A stretch of 64,000 nt of DNA, from sequence record OR352941.1; one strand, written 5' to 3'. The notes under the pieces were generated by a model. It was not told where the DNA came from. It was given only the letters and a program-made list of their open reading frames with translations, and did not search any database. The position numbers and the translations under genes were made by a program. How positions within the stretch are numbered: the stretch's first letter is position 1; each line of letters starts with the position of its first letter. The stretch comes from Escherichia phage AV111. Shown here piece after piece: positions 10,724 to 47,405 of this stretch.

Positions 10724-12007
10724 ATGAGTAAAATCCAAAAATTATTGCGTGAATCTACAACGTCTACTAGCAACTCAATTGGTCGCCCAAATCTCGTTGC
10801 TTTGACTCGCGCTACGACTAAATTAATATATTCTGACATTGTAGCAACACAAAGAACTAATCAACCTGTTGCTGCTTTTTATGGTATCAAATATCTTAAC
10901 CCAGATAACGAATTCACATTTAAAACTGGTGCTACTTATGCAGGCGAAGTTGGATATGTAGACCGAGAAAAAATTACCGAACTCACAGAAGAATCAAAAG
11001 TCACACTAAATAAAGGTGATTTTTTCAAATATAATAATATCGTCTATAAGGTGTTAGAAGATACACCGTTTGCAGATATTCAGGAAAGTGATCTAGAATT
11101 AGCTCTTCAGATTGCGGTCGTTCATTTAAAGGTACGGTTATTTTCGGATGCAGCGGTAACAAGCAAATTTGAAAGCTCTGGTAGCGAAATTTCTGATGCA
11201 AGATTCCAGATTAATAAATGGCAAACTTCAGTCAAATCTCGTAAACTTAAAACCGGCCTCACGGTTGAATTAGCGCAAGATTTAGAAGCGAATGGATTTG
11301 ATGCCCCTAACTTCTTAGAAGATTTGCTTGCTACTGAAATGGCTGATGAAATTAATAAAGATATTCTTCAGTCTTTAATTACTGTATCAAAACGTTATAA
11401 AGTTACTGGAATTACTGACACCGGATTTATTGACTTGAGCTATGCGTCTGCTCCAGAAGCAGGTCGTTCATTATATCGAATGGTGTGTGAAATGGTATCA
11501 CACATTCAAAAAGAGTCAACTTATACTGCAACGTTTTGCGTAGCTTCAGCTCGTGCAGCTGCTATTCTTGCTGCTTCTGGTTGGTTAAAACATAAGCCGG
11601 AAGATGATAAGTATCTTTCACAAAATGCTTATGGATTCTTGGCAAATGGATTACCTCTTTACTGCGATACCAACAATCCGTTAGATTATGTTATTGTGGG
11701 TGTTGTAGAAAATATCGGCGAAAAAGAGATTGTAGGGTCTATCTTTTATGCTCCATACACTGAAGGAGTAAATTTAGATGACCCGGAACATGTTGGTGCA
11801 TTTAAAGTTGTAGTTGATCCAGAAAGCTTGCAACCGTCTATCGGATTATTGGTTAGATATGCTTTATCAGCAAATCCTTACACAGTAGCAAAAGACGAAA
11901 AAGAAGCGAGAATAATTGATGGCGGGGACATGGATAAAATGGCGGGACGTTCAGACTTGTCTGTTTTATTAGGTGTTAAATTGCCTAAAATTATTATAGA
12001 TGAATAA
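10724..12007 (+). CDS. 24: Capsid vertex protein gp24
   Basis: 427 aa (same as T4 gp24), gp23 paralogue. Confidence 0.92.
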   Translation: MSKIQKLLRESTTSTSNSIGRPNLVALTRATTKLIYSDIVATQRTNQPVAAFYGIKYLNPDNEFTFKTGATYAGEVGYVDREKITELTEESKVTLNKGDFFKYNNIVYKVLEDTPFADIQESDLELALQIAVVHLKVRLFSDAAVTSKFESSGSEISDARFQINKWQTSVKSRKLKTGLTVELAQDLEANGFDAPNFLEDLLATEMADEINKDILQSLITVSKRYKVTGITDTGFIDLSYASAPEAGRSLYRMVCEMVSHIQKESTYTATFCVASARAAAILAASGWLKHKPEDDKYLSQNAYGFLANGLPLYCDTNNPLDYVIVGVVENIGEKEIVGSIFYAPYTEGVNLDDPEHVGAFKVVVDPESLQPSIGLLVRYALSANPYTVAKDEKEARIIDGGDMDKMAGRSDLSVLLGVKLPKIIIDE

Positions 12008-12015
12008 ACGAAAAA

Positions 12016-12031
12016 GGGACCTTACGGTCCC
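12016..12031. terminator. Bidirectional hairpin terminator between gene 24 and rnlB
   Basis: gggaccttacggtccc flanked by A-run upstream and T7 run downstream, so U-runs on both strands. Confidence 0.75.
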
Positions 12032-12039
12032 TTTTTTTG

Positions 12040-13039
12040 TTATGATACTAATTCAATCCATGCAGGACGCAGAACATCTTGCACCATTCGGACTAATTCT
12101 TTCTTAACAAGATTCGGATTATCAGATGATGTTAATACAATACCTTCACGAGAAGTTTCTTCCAGAATATCTTGAACAGTCAATCCCATCACTTTGCCAA
12201 AATCTTTTGGCGTTACAGTCCCAATCTTAGAAATAACATTATTAACACGGTTTAATGTAACATAACAAGCTAGGACATCAAGCAAGTTTTTGTCAATTTC
12301 GGTTAATGGAACCTGAGTTTTTAATAGGCTTATCAGACTTTTTCTTTTCACTGAATTTAGAGTTCTTACACTTAATAGCTACACGAGTACCGTTTGGCAG
12401 CCATTTAGGGAAACAAGGCTTCAGAACATAACCTTCTGCCGTATTATCGCCAATAACATTAGCATCAAATACACAATTATTTGCTTCTACAAGGTCTTCT
12501 GACGCAGTAGCATTATAAGCGGCTAAAACGGAATCAAGGTCATTTGGAATCGTGATAAGAGCATCAAATGTGCCACGTCCAAGCACTGGTGCCATTTTAA
12601 AACCGAATTCATTACAGAAATCTTGCATTTCGTAATCGGTCAAATACGTATTATCACCACTTTCTGTATTGATAAGGATATCGAACACATAAAAATCTTT
12701 TTCACCGTAGTCAACACCTTTCTGGATTCCACCACCAGCGAATTCACCAAAGACCTGATATGATACAGCTCGAGAACTACCCATTACTTCTTGAACGTTT
12801 TTAATAGCCTTATCATACTTCTTGAGTACAATTTCATAACCATAAAAATCTTCTGCTGGAAGAATAGGGCCTGTGCGCTTGGCGCATGTGACGTTGTCAC
12901 GTTCAATTATTAACGAGAAGTTAGTCCCATGGATTTTCTCACGTGCTACCCAAACACCAGTAGTCAAACCATTAGTGTAGAGTTTTTCAATAAACTTAGA
13001 GTTGTAGTGGTTTTCAAGACTGCTGTATTTCTTAAACAT
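12040..13039 (-). pseudogene. rnlB: RNA ligase 2 (rnlB) interrupted by a +1 frameshift; two ORFs of 248 aa (12293-13039) and 103 aa (12040-12351)
   Basis: N-part [16 protein letters not shown]...[10 protein letters not shown] (ligase KxHG motif) and C-part ...LACYVTLNRVNNVISKIG...RPAWIELVS each match remembered T4 Rnl2 (334 aa); the frames meet at an A5 run (T5 on plus strand, 12318-12322). Confidence 0.8.
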
Positions 13040-13158
13040 AAATCACCATTATAAATAATAATATCAAAATAATTAGCAGAGACTCTGTCTCTGACCAGAT
13101 GTTTAATTTGAATGGATAGAACCTAGATTCATTATACCATCAAAAAATGTAAAGCATA

Positions 13159-13410
13159 TTAGAACTTGATTTCTATCCAATGACCATCACGCTGGTCGTG
13201 ATTAATTTTGTACTGAAAGCCATTATCACGAAGCCATTGACCGACTTGTTCAGTTATAGTTAAATCGTTCTTTGACGGGTAGTACGTGAATTGTGTCTGG
13301 CCTTTGTCAGCGGCTTTCTCTGCCATCGCAGAGAAGTTAGTAATAAAATCACTCAACAAATTAGCTTTAGTGGCCAGAGCCCTTTCTCTTAATTCCTGTG
13401 CAAAACTCAT
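13159..13410 (-). CDS. Hypothetical protein (T4 24.x-like)
   Basis: 83-aa ORF between rnlB and hoc, position of T4 24.2/24.3. Confidence 0.55.
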   Translation of the reverse strand: MSFAQELRERALATKANLLSDFITNFSAMAEKAADKGQTQFTYYPSKNDLTITEQVGQWLRDNGFQYKINHDQRDGHWIEIKF

Positions 13411-13702: not shown

Positions 13703-14551
13703 TTATGGATATGTATAGATGATACCAGTTTCCAAAGCAGTTTTATGGATGATGTATCCGTTACGTGATTCTTGAACATCAACTTCCGGATAGTCTTTCA
13801 TCATCTTCTGAAGAGTGTAACGATGCAGGTAGTATTTACTATCTGGATCTTCAGTTTTCCAATCTTTACCTTCTTCAGTCATTTTTTGGATTTCATCCAT
13901 AACCCACCAACCGCACCAGATGTAAGCTGAAGTACGATGTGGAAGAGGATGAACATAAGGTAATTCACCTTCTGGTTCCGGAGCAACTTTATCAGTTACC
14001 TGAACTTGACCTTCTGCTGTAATAGTTTTGCTATCGTAATCAGTTGCAGTTACTTGGGCTACACATTTAATTCTTTTTACTCCACTTGTAGTTGGAGTAT
14101 AGCTAAATGTGGAGTTAGTTTCTCCACCAACCTGTGAATCATCTACATACCACTGATACGTAGCAGACGCTCCAGCTGGTTGAGAAGCTAAGGCAGCAGT
14201 AAATTGAACTGGGGTTCCAATTACTCCAGCTGAAGGACTATTGGGAGTTACAGCTAAGGTAGTCGTTTGTGTCTTGTTTTGAACTGTGATGGTTGTAGAA
14301 GCTTCTGCTGTTTCAGCTTCAGCTTCTGGAACTGTATTTGTTGCAACTACTTTAATAGTCTTTTGACCGGCAGGTCCTTTTAGTACATAACTAAAAGTTG
14401 CTTCAGCTCCATCTTGCGGAACATCATCTACAGACCAAGCATATGTAATAGTTCCACCTCCAGTTTCACCACCGGGAGTAGCAGTAAACTGCTTAGTCTC
14501 ATCTATAACTCCAGTAGGTGTTTTAGGAGTTATATCAACTGTAAAAGCCAT
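13703..14551 (-). CDS. hoc: Hoc, highly immunogenic outer capsid protein (shortened, 282 aa)
   Basis: N-terminal Ig-like domains and C-terminal capsid-binding segment (APEPEGELPYVHPLPHR...GIIYTYP) match remembered T4 Hoc; about 94 aa shorter than T4 Hoc (376 aa). Confidence 0.9.
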   Translation of the reverse strand: MAFTVDITPKTPTGVIDETKQFTATPGGETGGGTITYAWSVDDVPQDGAEATFSYVLKGPAGQKTIKVVATNTVPEAEAETAEASTTITVQNKTQTTTLAVTPNSPSAGVIGTPVQFTAALASQPAGASATYQWYVDDSQVGGETNSTFSYTPTTSGVKRIKCVAQVTATDYDSKTITAEGQVQVTDKVAPEPEGELPYVHPLPHRTSAYIWCGWWVMDEIQKMTEEGKDWKTEDPDSKYYLHRYTLQKMMKDYPEVDVQESRNGYIIHKTALETGIIYTYP

Positions 14552-15229: not shown

Positions 15230-15242
15230 GGTATTTCCTCAT

Positions 15243-15250
15243 TATAAATA
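15243..15250 (+). promoter_or_regulatory. T4 late promoter TATAAATA upstream of uvsW
   Basis: Exact TATAAATA about 30 nt upstream of the uvsW ATG. Confidence 0.7.
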
Positions 15251-15279
15251 TAACTATATTTATTACATGGTAATTTGAC

Positions 15280-16794
15280 ATGACTGACATTAAAGTACAT
15301 TTTTATGATTTTAGTCACGTGCGCATTGAATGCGACGAAAGTACGTTTTACGAACTTCGTGACTTTTTTAGCTTTGAAGCCGATGGATACAAATTCAACC
15401 CGCGTTACAAATATGGGAACTGGGACGGTAGAATTCGACTTTTAGATTATAACCGTTTGTTACCATATGGACTTGTAGGACAAATAAAAAAGTTCTGTAA
15501 CAATATGAGTTATTCTGTATGGATTGACCCTAAAATCTTTGAGACAGAAGACCTTACCAGGGAAGATTTTGACGCATGGCTTTCTAAACAAGAAATTTAT
15601 TCGGGCAATTCCAAAATCGAACCACATTGGTATCAAAAAGATGCAGTATATGAAGGACTAGTTAATCGTCGTCGAATTTTAAACCTTCCGACATCAGCAG
15701 GTAAATCACTAATCCAAGCACTTTTAGCTCGATATTATCTAGAGAACTATGAAGGTAAAATTCTCATTATCGTCCCTACAACAGCATTGACAACCCAGAT
15801 GGCTAATGATTTTGTTGATTATCGCTTGTTTAGTCATTCGATGATTAAGAAAATTGGCGGTGGTGCTGATAAAGCAGACAAATCTAAAAACGACGCTCCA
15901 ATTATTGTTGGCACATGGCAAACGGTAGTTAAGCAGCCTAAAGAATGGTTCTCTCAGTTCGGTATGATGATGAACGATGAATGCCACTTAGCAACAGGCA
16001 AAAGTATTTCTTCAATCATCTCAGGATTAAATAATTGTATGTTTAAATTCGGTTTATCTGGCTCATTAAGAGACGGAAAGGCCAATGTAATGCAGTACGT
16101 AGGCATGTTCGGCGAAATCTTCCGTCCTGTTAGCACGTCTAAATTAATGGAAGATGGACAGGTAACTGAGCTTAAGATTAATAGTATTTTCCTTCGTTAT
16201 CCAGACGAATTCGCCACCAAATTAAAAGGTAAAACATACCAAGAAGAAGTTAAAATTATTACCGGACTAAAACGACGTACAAAGTGGATTGCTCAACTTT
16301 CAGTCAAATTGGCTAAGAAAGACGAGAACGCTTTTGTAATGTTTAAACACGTTACACACGGTAAAGAAATATTTGAAGCTATTAAAGAGCTTGGATACGA
16401 AAAAGTTTATTACGTATCAGGTGAAGTTGATACTGAAACACGTAACGCGCTTAAAGTCATGGCAGAAAATGGTAAAGGCATTATTATTGTCGCATCATAT
16501 GGAGTATTCTCTACTGGTATTTCAGTCAAGAATCTTCATCATGTTATTTTTGCCCATGGTGTTAAATCAAAAATTATCGTACTTCAAACCGTAGGTCGCG
16601 TGCTTCGCAAGCATGGTTCTAAATCTGTTGCTACAGTTTGGGATCTCATCGACGATGCAGGTGTAAAACCTAAATCATTAAATACTAAAAAGAAGTATAC
16701 TCATCTTAATTACTTGTTAAAACACGGTATTGATCGTATCCAACGTTACGCTGATGAGAAATTTAACTATGTAATGAAAACAATTAATTTATAA
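15280..16794 (+). CDS. uvsW: UvsW, SF2 DNA helicase (recombination/repair)
   Basis: 504 aa; helicase motifs (LPTSAGKS Walker A, DECH box); N-terminus MTDIKVHFYDFSHVRIE matches T4 UvsW. Confidence 0.93.
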   Translation: MTDIKVHFYDFSHVRIECDESTFYELRDFFSFEADGYKFNPRYKYGNWDGRIRLLDYNRLLPYGLVGQIKKFCNNMSYSVWIDPKIFETEDLTREDFDAWLSKQEIYSGNSKIEPHWYQKDAVYEGLVNRRRILNLPTSAGKSLIQALLARYYLENYEGKILIIVPTTALTTQMANDFVDYRLFSHSMIKKIGGGADKADKSKNDAPIIVGTWQTVVKQPKEWFSQFGMMMNDECHLATGKSISSIISGLNNCMFKFGLSGSLRDGKANVMQYVGMFGEIFRPVSTSKLMEDGQVTELKINSIFLRYPDEFATKLKGKTYQEEVKIITGLKRRTKWIAQLSVKLAKKDENAFVMFKHVTHGKEIFEAIKELGYEKVYYVSGEVDTETRNALKVMAENGKGIIIVASYGVFSTGISVKNLHHVIFAHGVKSKIIVLQTVGRVLRKHGSKSVATVWDLIDDAGVKPKSLNTKKKYTHLNYLLKHGIDRIQRYADEKFNYVMKTINL

Positions 16795-44245: not shown

Positions 44246-45235
44246 TTAAAGCTTACAAGCAGAACAATCTTCTGCTTTAGGTGTTTCTAATTCATAGTCG
44301 TCTGTACCAGACCCATCACGAGTGTTATGATAGTAGAGGTTTTTTCCGCCAAAGTACCAGAAGTAAAGCAGATCGTCAAGCATTACTGACATTGGCACTT
44401 TACCTTTCTCAAATACTGCAGGGTCATAGTAAGTATTAGCAGAAGCAGATTGGCACACCCATTTCAACATGATAGCAACTTGGGTCAAATAAGGTTTATT
44501 ACCTTTCTTAGCAAGTTTCCACGCGTAGTCGTAAAGACTCATGTTATGTTCTATATTAGGAACAACCTGACGGAAGTTGCCTTCTTTAGATTCTTTAATA
44601 CTTACTGGACCACGTGGTGGCTCAATCCCGTTTGTAGAGTTTGATACTTGACTGCTTGACTCACAAGGCATGAGTGCAGACAACGTTGAGTTACGAATTC
44701 CATGTTCTTTGAGTTCAGCTCGAAGTTCTTCCCAGTCACAGACGTAGTTCGGGGCTGCGATTTGGTCAATCTTTTTATTGTACCAGTCGATAGGTAATTC
44801 GCCTCTAGACCATTTAGTGTCTGAATAATACTCGCAACATCCTTTTTCTTTGGCGAGTTTGATTGATGCTTTGATAAGGCCATATTGCAATCTCTCAAAC
44901 AATTCATGAGTCAAATCGTTAGCGTCTTCATATGAAGCAAAGTTAGAAGCTAACCATGCGGCATAGTTCGTCACACCAACACCGAGGTTTCGACGCTTTT
45001 TAGCTTTTAAAGCTTCTGGAACCGGATAATCTTGATAGTCTAACAGGTTATCAAGTGCACGTACTTGTACTTCAGCAAGTTCATTAATTTTATCTTGGTC
45101 TTGCCAATCAAATTTATCTAATACAAAAGCAGATAATGTGCAAAGGCCCACTTCACCTTTGTTTTCAATAACTTGTATTGTTGTATACTCATCATCTTCG
45201 TAAAATTCATCTACAAATTCATAATCAATATTCAT
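44246..45235 (-). CDS. nrdA: Ribonucleotide reductase large subunit NrdA, C-terminal piece (NrdA-b-like)
   Basis: 329 aa; GEVGLCTLSAF...ALDNLLDYQDYPV...NSTLSALMP.ESSSQ.SN.TNGIEPPRG...C-terminal CxxC tail, collinear with E. coli NrdA residues ~455-761; own ATG overlaps the stop of the upstream HNH gene. Confidence 0.88.
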   Translation of the reverse strand: MNIDYEFVDEFYEDDEYTTIQVIENKGEVGLCTLSAFVLDKFDWQDQDKINELAEVQVRALDNLLDYQDYPVPEALKAKKRRNLGVGVTNYAAWLASNFASYEDANDLTHELFERLQYGLIKASIKLAKEKGCCEYYSDTKWSRGELPIDWYNKKIDQIAAPNYVCDWEELRAELKEHGIRNSTLSALMPCESSSQVSNSTNGIEPPRGPVSIKESKEGNFRQVVPNIEHNMSLYDYAWKLAKKGNKPYLTQVAIMLKWVCQSASANTYYDPAVFEKGKVPMSVMLDDLLYFWYFGGKNLYYHNTRDGSGTDDYELETPKAEDCSACKL

Positions 45236-45935
45236 TTAATTCTTCTACCTTTTTTCGAGATATTCCTAGAGCTTTAGATGCTCGATGTATTGATTGATAT
45301 TCTATACCGTTTATTTTTACAGCAATTAAGTTATGGGGTTTTAATCCCTTTGGATGAGGTTTACTGACGTATTCTTGATTATCGTTTTCAGAGATATTAT
45401 CAAGCTTTCGACACTTAAAGCCTTTATGTTGAGACCTTTTGCCTTTGCATACGGCCGACATTGCCGAAGCATTGAGTGAATGTAGTTCGCAAAATTCTCT
45501 TAGGCCTTTATGGATTTCTTCATGACCGTCCGGGAAAGTAAATACCCAAGTTGTTTGAAGTTTTTCTCTATGCTCGTCAGTTACCGGAATACCTTTGTTC
45601 CAAGCTGGTTTGCCTTTATTATTTTCAGATACAGAAATAGCCAATTTTCTTCTAAGCCACCCATGGCGTTTATTGGTGTTCTTTCGTTCAATATTATCTT
45701 CAGAATAAACACACATCATATTAGCGGCAAATACCAATTTATGATTATCTGGATATATCTTTACTAATAATTGATGAGCTATGTAATGCTCTTCGGGTGT
45801 CAAATCTACCAGGTTTTCCTTTGTATCAGAACCACCAATACACAGAGGTATAATATGGTGTGATTCGGTATAGCAATCTAATTTTCTGTTCTTAGCTTTA
45901 GAAATAAGGTTATTGTAAATTTTAGAATAATCCAT
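45225..45935 (-). CDS. HNH homing endonuclease (MobE-like) inserted within nrdA
   Basis: 236 aa; HNH motif ESHHIIPLCIGGSDTKENLVDLTPEEHYIAH; C-terminal basic DNA-binding-like region; lies between the two nrdA pieces. Confidence 0.85.
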   Translation of the reverse strand: MDYSKIYNNLISKAKNRKLDCYTESHHIIPLCIGGSDTKENLVDLTPEEHYIAHQLLVKIYPDNHKLVFAANMMCVYSEDNIERKNTNKRHGWLRRKLAISVSENNKGKPAWNKGIPVTDEHREKLQTTWVFTFPDGHEEIHKGLREFCELHSLNASAMSAVCKGKRSQHKGFKCRKLDNISENDNQEYVSKPHPKGLKPHNLIAVKINGIEYQSIHRASKALGISRKKVEELNEY

Positions 45936-45980
45936 AACTTTTCCTCTTGTTATGGATTATTTATTAACGGCCTGTGTACT
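45225..45980 (-). mobile_element. Homing-endonuclease insertion splitting nrdA (free-standing HEG or ORF-containing intron)
   Basis: NrdA homology stops after the SNLCCEIAIPTNDVN active-site segment and resumes at GEVGLCTLSAF in a separate ORF; the intervening 0.75 kb is almost entirely the HNH ORF. Confidence 0.75.
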
Positions 45981-47405
45981 TTATTTGCTTTGAATTATAC
46001 CGCCAGGATTAGCTTCATAAAACTTAGCTACATCCGACTTCTTAATTTTGATTAAACGGGTTTGTTGGCTATTCACATCATTAGTTGGAATAGCGATTTC
46101 ACAACATAAGTTACTTTGACGAATTGGAGCTTTTTCACGAATAAATGGAGTGTAGTTATTCGTGTTATCAACAAACTGCGGATAAATTCGAGCAGTGCCA
46201 GAACGTTCAGTCATGAACAATTCAAAGAGTTCTAGTGCTTTGATTCTTTTCTTTCTGATTGTTGGGTCTTTTTCAGCTTTCTCATAAAGCTCATGGAATT
46301 TATCTTGATCTTCAAAGAACGAGTAGTATAGTTCGCCTGACATTTCGTGAGGGCTAAATAAAGTAATATAATCATTTTTACCAAGGCGTTCCATCATAAG
46401 GTCATTAATCTGAATTCCGTAGTCCATATGTCGAATACGGTTTTCATCTACGCCTTTGTTATTTTTCAGAACTAATAGGTTCTCTACTTCTAAGTGCCAC
46501 ATTGGATAATACGCTGTAGCAGCACCACCACGAATACCACCTTGAGAACAAGATTTTACTGCAGTTTGGAAATGTTTCCAGAATGGAATAACACCCGTAT
46601 GTCGAACTTCACCCATACCGATCTTAGAACCTTCTGCACGAAGCATACCAACGTTGATACCGATACCAGCTCGTTTAGAAATATATTCAATAATTGATGC
46701 TGAAGTTTTGTTAATAGATTTTAACGAATCACCGGCTTCAATAACTACACAACTAGAGAACTGGCGAGTCGGAGTACGAGCACCTGCCATAATTGGAGTA
46801 GGCAATGAAACTTGATGAGTAGAAACGGCATCATAAAAACGAATAATATGTTTCAAACGGTTATGAGTTTCGTCTTGGTGTAAGGCCATACCAATAGCCA
46901 TGATAGCAAACTGGGGAGTTTCATAAATCTTCCCAGTTGTTTTATCTTTAACTAGATATTTTTCTTTAAGCTGCATAGCACCAGCATAAGTCAGGTCAAA
47001 GTCTCGGTCATGTTTAATCTGTGAATCGAGATAAATGATTTCTTCTGCTGAATATTGAGACAACAGCTCAGGGTCATATTTGCCTTCATTAACACAGTAA
47101 GAAATATGGTCGATAAAAGCAGGCGGTTCAAACTGCCCGTATACATCTTTACGAAGTGCAAACATTAGCCCTTTGGCGGCGACATACTGATAATCAGGTT
47201 CTTCGACAGAAATCAAGTTAGCTGCAACTTTAATACAAATCTTCTGAATATCTTTGGTGCTCATCCCATCGACAAGATGGGTCTTAATTTCTTCGTACAA
47301 TTCATATGGGTCAATTTGTGTTCCTTCACATTGCCAAGTTAAGACTTTAATAATTTTCTGTGCATCAAAATTTTGGGATACACCACTGCTCTTATTTACT
47401 TGCAT
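45981..47405 (-). CDS. nrdA: Ribonucleotide reductase large subunit NrdA, N-terminal piece (NrdA-a-like)
   Basis: 474 aa; ATP-cone N-terminus, catalytic SNLCCEI motif near the C-terminus, then 29 non-homologous residues and stop. Confidence 0.88.
   Translation of the reverse strand: MQVNKSSGVSQNFDAQKIIKVLTWQCEGTQIDPYELYEEIKTHLVDGMSTKDIQKICIKVAANLISVEEPDYQYVAAKGLMFALRKDVYGQFEPPAFIDHISYCVNEGKYDPELLSQYSAEEIIYLDSQIKHDRDFDLTYAGAMQLKEKYLVKDKTTGKIYETPQFAIMAIGMALHQDETHNRLKHIIRFYDAVSTHQVSLPTPIMAGARTPTRQFSSCVVIEAGDSLKSINKTSASIIEYISKRAGIGINVGMLRAEGSKIGMGEVRHTGVIPFWKHFQTAVKSCSQGGIRGGAATAYYPMWHLEVENLLVLKNNKGVDENRIRHMDYGIQINDLMMERLGKNDYITLFSPHEMSGELYYSFFEDQDKFHELYEKAEKDPTIRKKRIKALELFELFMTERSGTARIYPQFVDNTNNYTPFIREKAPIRQSNLCCEIAIPTNDVNSQQTRLIKIKKSDVAKFYEANPGGIIQSK

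Follow-up and report, generated by a model that had tools for sequence, protein, structure and literature searches.

The DNA analysed here is a 64,000-nucleotide stretch (the window) of Escherichia phage AV111, a Mosigvirus with a genome of 172,602 bp (OR352941; PMC10844046). Recovered from wastewater with E. coli ESBL158 as host, the phage has a broad host range and has been proposed for biocontrol of ESBL E. coli (PMC10844046). It belongs to the RB69 group of Mosigvirus. Two overlapping open reading frames (ORFs) were identified on the minus strand between positions 12040 and 13039 of the window. The first starts with an ATG at 13037–13039 and codes for 248 amino acids (12293–13039), and the second codes for 103 amino acids (12040–12351) from a GTG start that is purely mechanical. 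The two frames overlap by 83 nt (gene nt 662–744). The ORF of gene 24 ends at 12007 and the ORF of gene 24.2 lies at 13159–13410, giving the same order of gene 24, rnlB, 24.2, 24.3, and hoc as in annotated relatives. The AV111 gene therefore occupies the position of T4 RNA ligase 2 (Rnl2; gp24.1, rnlB; PDB 2HVQ/2HVR/2HVS) and RB69 RnlB, convergent with gene 24 and downstream of 24.2, 24.3, and hoc.

Pfam searches placed an RNA_ligase domain (PF09414) at residues 30–223 of the first ORF (E value 1.4e-24) and the T4_Rnl2_C domain (PF18043) in the second (E value 5.4e-24). Both Pfam domains of T4 Rnl2 and RB69 RnlB are thus encoded in AV111, but the frame is broken at codon 240/241, which separates the two domains. 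The all-helical, Rnl2-specific PF18043 domain is encoded in the +1 frame after a premature stop, and so is not fused to the first domain in one polypeptide. Deleting a single A produces a 332-amino acid protein, of which residues 1–332 align to residues 2–335 of 2hvq_A with an E value of 1.6e-169. Over its full length, this restored protein shares 76% identity with T4 Rnl2, and its identity to Mosigvirus orthologues is ~96%; judged from the alignment, its match to T4 Rnl2 is far beyond chance. The original prediction, that the 248- and 103-amino acid ORFs jointly reproduce T4 Rnl2 and that removing one A restores a continuous frame, is borne out by the exact ORF coordinates, by the division of the Pfam domains between the two ORFs, and by the end-to-end alignment of residues 1–332 to T4 Rnl2.

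The frame is broken within a run of five A residues on the coding strand (minus strand, 12318–12322; T5 on the plus strand). The coding strand around this run reads GATAAGCCTATTAAAAACTCAGGTTCC, with the five A's at 12322–12318. As translated from the rnlB start, the codons here are AAG CCT ATT AAA AAC TCA, followed by GGT TCC ATT AAC CGA AAT and a TGA. This premature TGA (12293–12295, minus strand) is the first stop in frame 0, at gene nt 745, and lies 8 codons past the insertion in the shifted frame. Residues 1–240 of the 248-amino acid ORF are the native nucleotidyltransferase domain (T4 residues 1–242), and the remaining eight residues, NSGSINRN, are read out of frame. The insertion was placed at codon 240/241 of AV111 rnlB. 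What follows (12040–12317, minus strand) is the out-of-frame remainder of rnlB, which codes for the Rnl2-specific C-terminal domain (T4 residues 243–334), as delineated by the ORF, the PF18043 match, and T4 alignments, and which extends to the native TAA at 12040–12042 on the minus strand.

Aligned to T4 Rnl2, the frame break after Lys240 corresponds to T4 Lys242 and falls at T4 K242/A243, in the inter-domain linker. The expectation of a product with the nucleotidyltransferase domain but no C-terminal domain agrees with this position, since the break at T4-equivalent residue 242/243 is the domain boundary. The 248-amino acid product still has K35, the lysine of motif I (KxxG), and both lysines of motif V (T4 K225/K227), and the segments EKIHGTN and AIKCKNSKF are conserved with T4 Rnl2. 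The 248-amino acid product is identical to WPK34128.1, which is annotated as an 'RNA ligase' of AV111.

Signals for expression were found on the upstream side of the gene. A Shine-Dalgarno-like GGTGA (13043–13047, minus strand) lies 3 nt before the rnlB ATG, and is intact and identical in relatives, where it occupies invariant alignment columns. Just past the gene 24.2 stop codon, a putative MotA-type middle promoter (aatATGCTTTAcattttttgatggTATAATg; 13131–13156, minus strand) was read by eye. Its two elements, TGCTTTA-N13-TATAAT at 13156–13131, fit the consensus for T4 MotA-dependent middle promoters. A sigma-70 scan of the minus strand identified no promoter upstream of rnlB, and a MotA-type element would go uncalled in such a scan because promoters of this kind have no −35 hexamer. 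Between the putative promoter and the ribosome-binding site, the rnlB leader contains a 7-bp hairpin, CAGAGAC-AGA-GTCTCTG (13077–13093, minus strand), which was flagged by the terminator scan. A clean T run is absent after this hairpin, and its 3′ arm and the sequence that follows are conserved in relatives over the aligned part.

At the other end of the gene, the terminator scan identified a GC-rich hairpin of 11 pairs (12011–12036) between the convergent gene 24 (plus strand) and rnlB (minus strand), and relatives annotate a terminator at the same junction. No further gene follows rnlB on its strand ahead of this terminator, which gene 24 shares, and the frameshift is therefore not expected to have polar effects. 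In the terminator region (12009–12036), the T run on the rnlB side of the hairpin is T5 followed by C, compared with T7–T9 in relatives, and the base before the A run is A, not G. The T-run difference is natural homopolymer-length variation in an intergenic terminator. Restart sites for the C-terminal domain were also considered. Its separate expression is unlikely, as the GTG at 12351 has no Shine-Dalgarno sequence and the only nearby restart after the TGA is a TTG that has none either.

Identity between this region and many Mosigvirus (RB69-group) genomes is 96–98.6%. In relatives, rnlB is annotated as one gene of 999 bp, and the C-terminal domain is in frame in all relatives inspected. A DNA alignment with mobillu, NicPhage, vB_EQ1, and RB69 revealed that all four read ATT-AAAA-CTCAGG and that the fifth A occurs in the window only (column 761). 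Genome alignment likewise placed an insertion of length 1 in the window at ~12318 relative to both NicPhage and mar005P1. A 71-nt query centred on the A5 site was then searched among 50,697 phage records. None of these records contained a full-length match at 100% identity, and the query was covered with one base fewer in 12 of 12 top matches and in 14 of 14 full-length matches from a sample spread across the whole ranking. T4-type phages have A3 at this site because the next codon there is GCT. The original prediction had placed the frame switch within the A5 run and had suggested comparison with the closest relatives; the switch can be seen in the sequence, and all relatives inspected have A4 where the window has exactly one A more. 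With A4 in every relative inspected, the window carries a lineage-specific +1 insertion (A4 to A5).

Almost all of the 120 listed cluster representatives of the Rnl2 family are 330–337 amino acids long and contain both domains. In a collection of 15 billion proteins, the exact 248-amino acid product was found on one contig only, and the restored 332-amino acid sequence was absent. Exact-pattern scans of IMG/VR did not recover a 27-mer containing A5, but the 26-mer control with A4 was also absent, making that collection uninformative here.

AV111 was sequenced from Nextera XT libraries on an Illumina MiSeq (2 × 250) and assembled de novo in CLC (PMC10844046). We aligned the window to NicPhage, mar005P1, JK45, G2469, and LF82-1, listed all indels whose length is not a multiple of three, and checked them against the CDS tables. 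Over positions 1–50 kb, where identity to NicPhage, mar005P1, JK45, and G2469 is ~98%, the indel at 12318 is the only uncompensated frame-breaker in a conserved gene. Other indels of this kind in the same interval lie between genes, are compensated only a few bases away, are confined to a single relative, or sit at an alignment edge at an in-frame deletion in hoc. A single frame-breaking indel in ~50 kb makes a real mutation likelier than homopolymer error, and we consider it likely that the extra A is a genuine recent mutation in the sequenced AV111 stock.

The alternative that survives best, although we judge it unlikely, is that the fifth A arose as an error of assembly or consensus calling, or represents a minority variant taken up in the assembly, and that the real phage has A4 and an intact 332-amino acid Rnl2. 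A one-base change in homopolymer length is the classic form of a sequencing artefact, and the vB_EQ1 record, which also has a homopolymer frameshift in rnlB, indicates that such calls occur in deposited genomes. The AV111 data are from MiSeq, however, and not from 454, Ion Torrent, or Nanopore, and consensus indel errors at 5-base homopolymers are very rare on MiSeq at normal phage coverage. The window contains 295 homopolymer runs of at least 5 bases, and a systematic error of the pipeline would therefore have left several traces among them rather than one frame-breaker in a conserved CDS in ~50 kb. The rnlB gene of phage AV109, whose genome was produced in the same laboratory with the same pipeline, is intact at 999 bp.

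Three further observations fit an error in the record: the A5 allele is unique among all relatives inspected, the exact 248-amino acid product is known from a single contig, and the remainder of rnlB is free of decay. On the last point, alignment with mobillu, NicPhage, vB_EQ1, and RB69 identified no window-specific changes in rnlB downstream of the frameshift. Going by this alignment, an event that has left no pseudogene decay downstream would be either very recent or artefactual. Two amino acid differences from the closest relatives were found: V in place of M at residue 152, where T4 has L, and T in place of M at residue 163. The T at residue 163 also occurs in three intact homologues (P0002, P0003, and P0005). 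These two differences were considered as a sign of relaxed selection that would mark a pseudogene, and gave no signal either way.

If the mutation is genuine, its consequences can be extrapolated from the T4 enzyme. The N domain of T4 Rnl2 (residues 1–243) is needed and sufficient for step 1, ligase adenylylation, and step 3, phosphodiester formation; the C domain (residues 244–329) is dispensable for both and takes part in step 2, the transfer of AMP to the 5′-PO4 (PMC3149579). Rnl2(1–249) is widely used as a "truncated" ligase (PMC3149579), and PDB entry 1s68 is its structure. The fragment predicted for AV111 is almost equivalent to this commercial 'T4 RNA ligase 2, truncated' (PDB 1S68), but arises by natural frameshift and not by design. 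It ends at T4-equivalent residue 242 with the tail NSGSINRN, and so would be 7 native residues shorter than T4 Rnl2(1–249), with an 8-residue foreign tail.

The sequence of events that we propose begins at codon 240/241 of AV111 rnlB (T4 gene 24.1), where a single A was recently inserted in this lineage alone, extending A4 to A5. The gene would presumably still be expressed, with its ribosome-binding site kept and a likely promoter upstream. Translation would leave the native frame after Lys240, add eight foreign residues, and stop, and the resulting protein would consist of only the nucleotidyltransferase domain, truncated at the linker that leads to the C-terminal domain. By inference from T4 Rnl2, the fragment could carry out step 1, forming ligase-AMP, and step 3, ligating a pre-adenylylated 5′ end to the 3′-OH of an RNA, and would be defective in step 2, the transfer of AMP to a 5′-phosphate. 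With step 2 defective, it would probably be unable to seal an ordinary 3′-OH/5′-PO4 RNA nick and would be a functional null for RNA repair. AV111 would then be in effect an rnlB loss-of-function mutant, and the loss would appear to be tolerated, with Rnl2 not needed for growth under the conditions of isolation.

The allele could instead be a functional variant rather than a null, which we regard as improbable. The fragment would then be a stable stand-alone adenylyltransferase domain with partial activity in vivo, the natural equivalent of the Rnl2tr reagent, or rare +1 slippage would keep a low level of full-length ligase. Partial activity might consist, for example, of joining pre-adenylylated RNA ends or of acting with a separately re-initiated C-terminal fragment.

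Programmed frameshifting is the most improbable of the readings. Here the A5 run would be a recoding site, at which a +1 slip of tRNA-Lys from one AAA to an overlapping AAA, or transcriptional slippage, would yield truncated and full-length Rnl2 in a set ratio. The geometry allows such a shift, as the frames overlap by 83 nt and a +1 slip on A-AAA-AC gives back exactly the ancestral ...PIKTQVPL..., and trace slippage is conceivable on any A5 run. However, neither the site nor the two-frame arrangement is conserved: inspected relatives have a single frame and A4, T4-type phages have A3, and all 26 full-length matches listed for the 71-nt query are one base shorter. Without conservation, the site is not an evolved feature. 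The flanks of the shift site are identical in relatives that do not frameshift. Known +1 sites, such as those of prfB and Ty1, have a stop or poorly decoded next codon and/or a stimulator, either a Shine-Dalgarno-like element upstream or a structure downstream. At the AV111 site, the A-site codon AAC is neither a stop nor rare (23.2 per 1000 in the long ORFs of this phage), and no Shine-Dalgarno-like (GGAGG-like) element occurs in the 20 nt upstream. The site therefore resembles E. coli prfB-type +1 sites only formally, in that full-length protein could be made only through a +1 shift, and differs from them in conservation, in the A-site codon, and in the upstream Shine-Dalgarno-like stimulator. 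Appreciable RNA polymerase slippage or ribosome sliding is also known from runs much longer than A5, and a scan of the whole window against Rfam at gathering thresholds produced no matches, indicating no known RNA element at the site. Programmed frameshifting is effectively excluded. The original prediction had left true mutation, sequencing error, and programmed frameshift side by side; these can now be ranked, with true mutation the most likely, assembly error less likely, and programmed frameshift unsupported.

Disrupted rnlB alleles were also identified in other records. Like AV111, vB_EQ1 (PQ516281.1) has a one-base homopolymer insertion in rnlB, but at a different site: the C run of TTTCCC is longer by one base (C3 to C4) at codon ~211, which leads to a 211-amino acid product. 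MRostami-2023e (OQ031495.1) also has an rnlB product of 211 amino acids. That these two Iranian Mosigvirus records share the cause of their truncation is only a guess, and the truncations may reflect either sequencing artefacts or one real allele common to both. Among truncated products from Logan, one (P0026) has a frameshift near residue 270 and two (P0035 and P0064) are missing the N-terminus. The A5 allele is absent from vB_EQ1 and from all three of these, and the sites differ. These examples come from a sample of T-even-type genomes. Occasional loss of a dispensable accessory gene would be expected to leave such sporadic disruptions at other sites.

A genuine A5 allele would make AV111 a natural rnlB knockout and would show that Rnl2 is dispensable on wild E. 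coli hosts. To our knowledge, the physiological role of Rnl2 is still unsettled, and comparison of the A5 phage with an A4 revertant would offer an isogenic handle on it. A literature search returned nothing relevant linking Rnl2 loss to escape from defence systems, and the paper describing AV111 does not mention RNA ligase (PMC10844046). For annotation, the locus is better marked as a frameshifted rnlB pseudogene than as a 248-amino acid "RNA ligase". The allele is an ordinary one-off inactivating frameshift in a known non-essential gene, of an already known kind and with no new mechanism. It is mildly notable only in that the break coincides with a domain boundary and reproduces the biotechnological "Rnl2 truncated".

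Elsewhere in the window, nrdA (the large ribonucleotide reductase subunit) occurs in two pieces on the minus strand (44246–47405). The first piece codes for 474 amino acids (45981–47405) and contains the ATP-cone, the all-alpha domain, and barrel profile positions 1–221; the second codes for 329 amino acids (44246–45235) and contains barrel profile positions 219–523. Between them lies an ORF of 236 amino acids (45225–45935) with an I-HmuI-like NUMOD domain and an HNH-like motif. The insert is ~915 bp long (~45156–46070) and is absent from JK45 and G2469. Phage JM17 appears to share it, because NrdA alpha is annotated twice there. The Rfam scan of the whole window at gathering thresholds identified no group I intron at nrdA. 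Aeromonas phage Aeh1 reportedly has a 'genes-in-pieces' nrdA that is split by a free-standing homing endonuclease, and the endonuclease gene splitting nrdA in the window resembles that arrangement.

The gene for the head outer capsid protein, hoc, is intact in the window (13703–14551, minus strand) and codes for 282 amino acids, compared with 376 for the NicPhage and mar005P1 genes. An in-frame loss of 282 bp accounts for the 94 missing amino acids, roughly the length of one Ig-like repeat. NicPhage has ~740 bp between inh and uvsW (15567–16310 in NicPhage) that are absent from mar005P1 and from the window, where the corresponding position is 15230–15280. A 744-bp CDS for a hypothetical protein is annotated within this additional NicPhage DNA, which probably represents a mobile or accessory gene.
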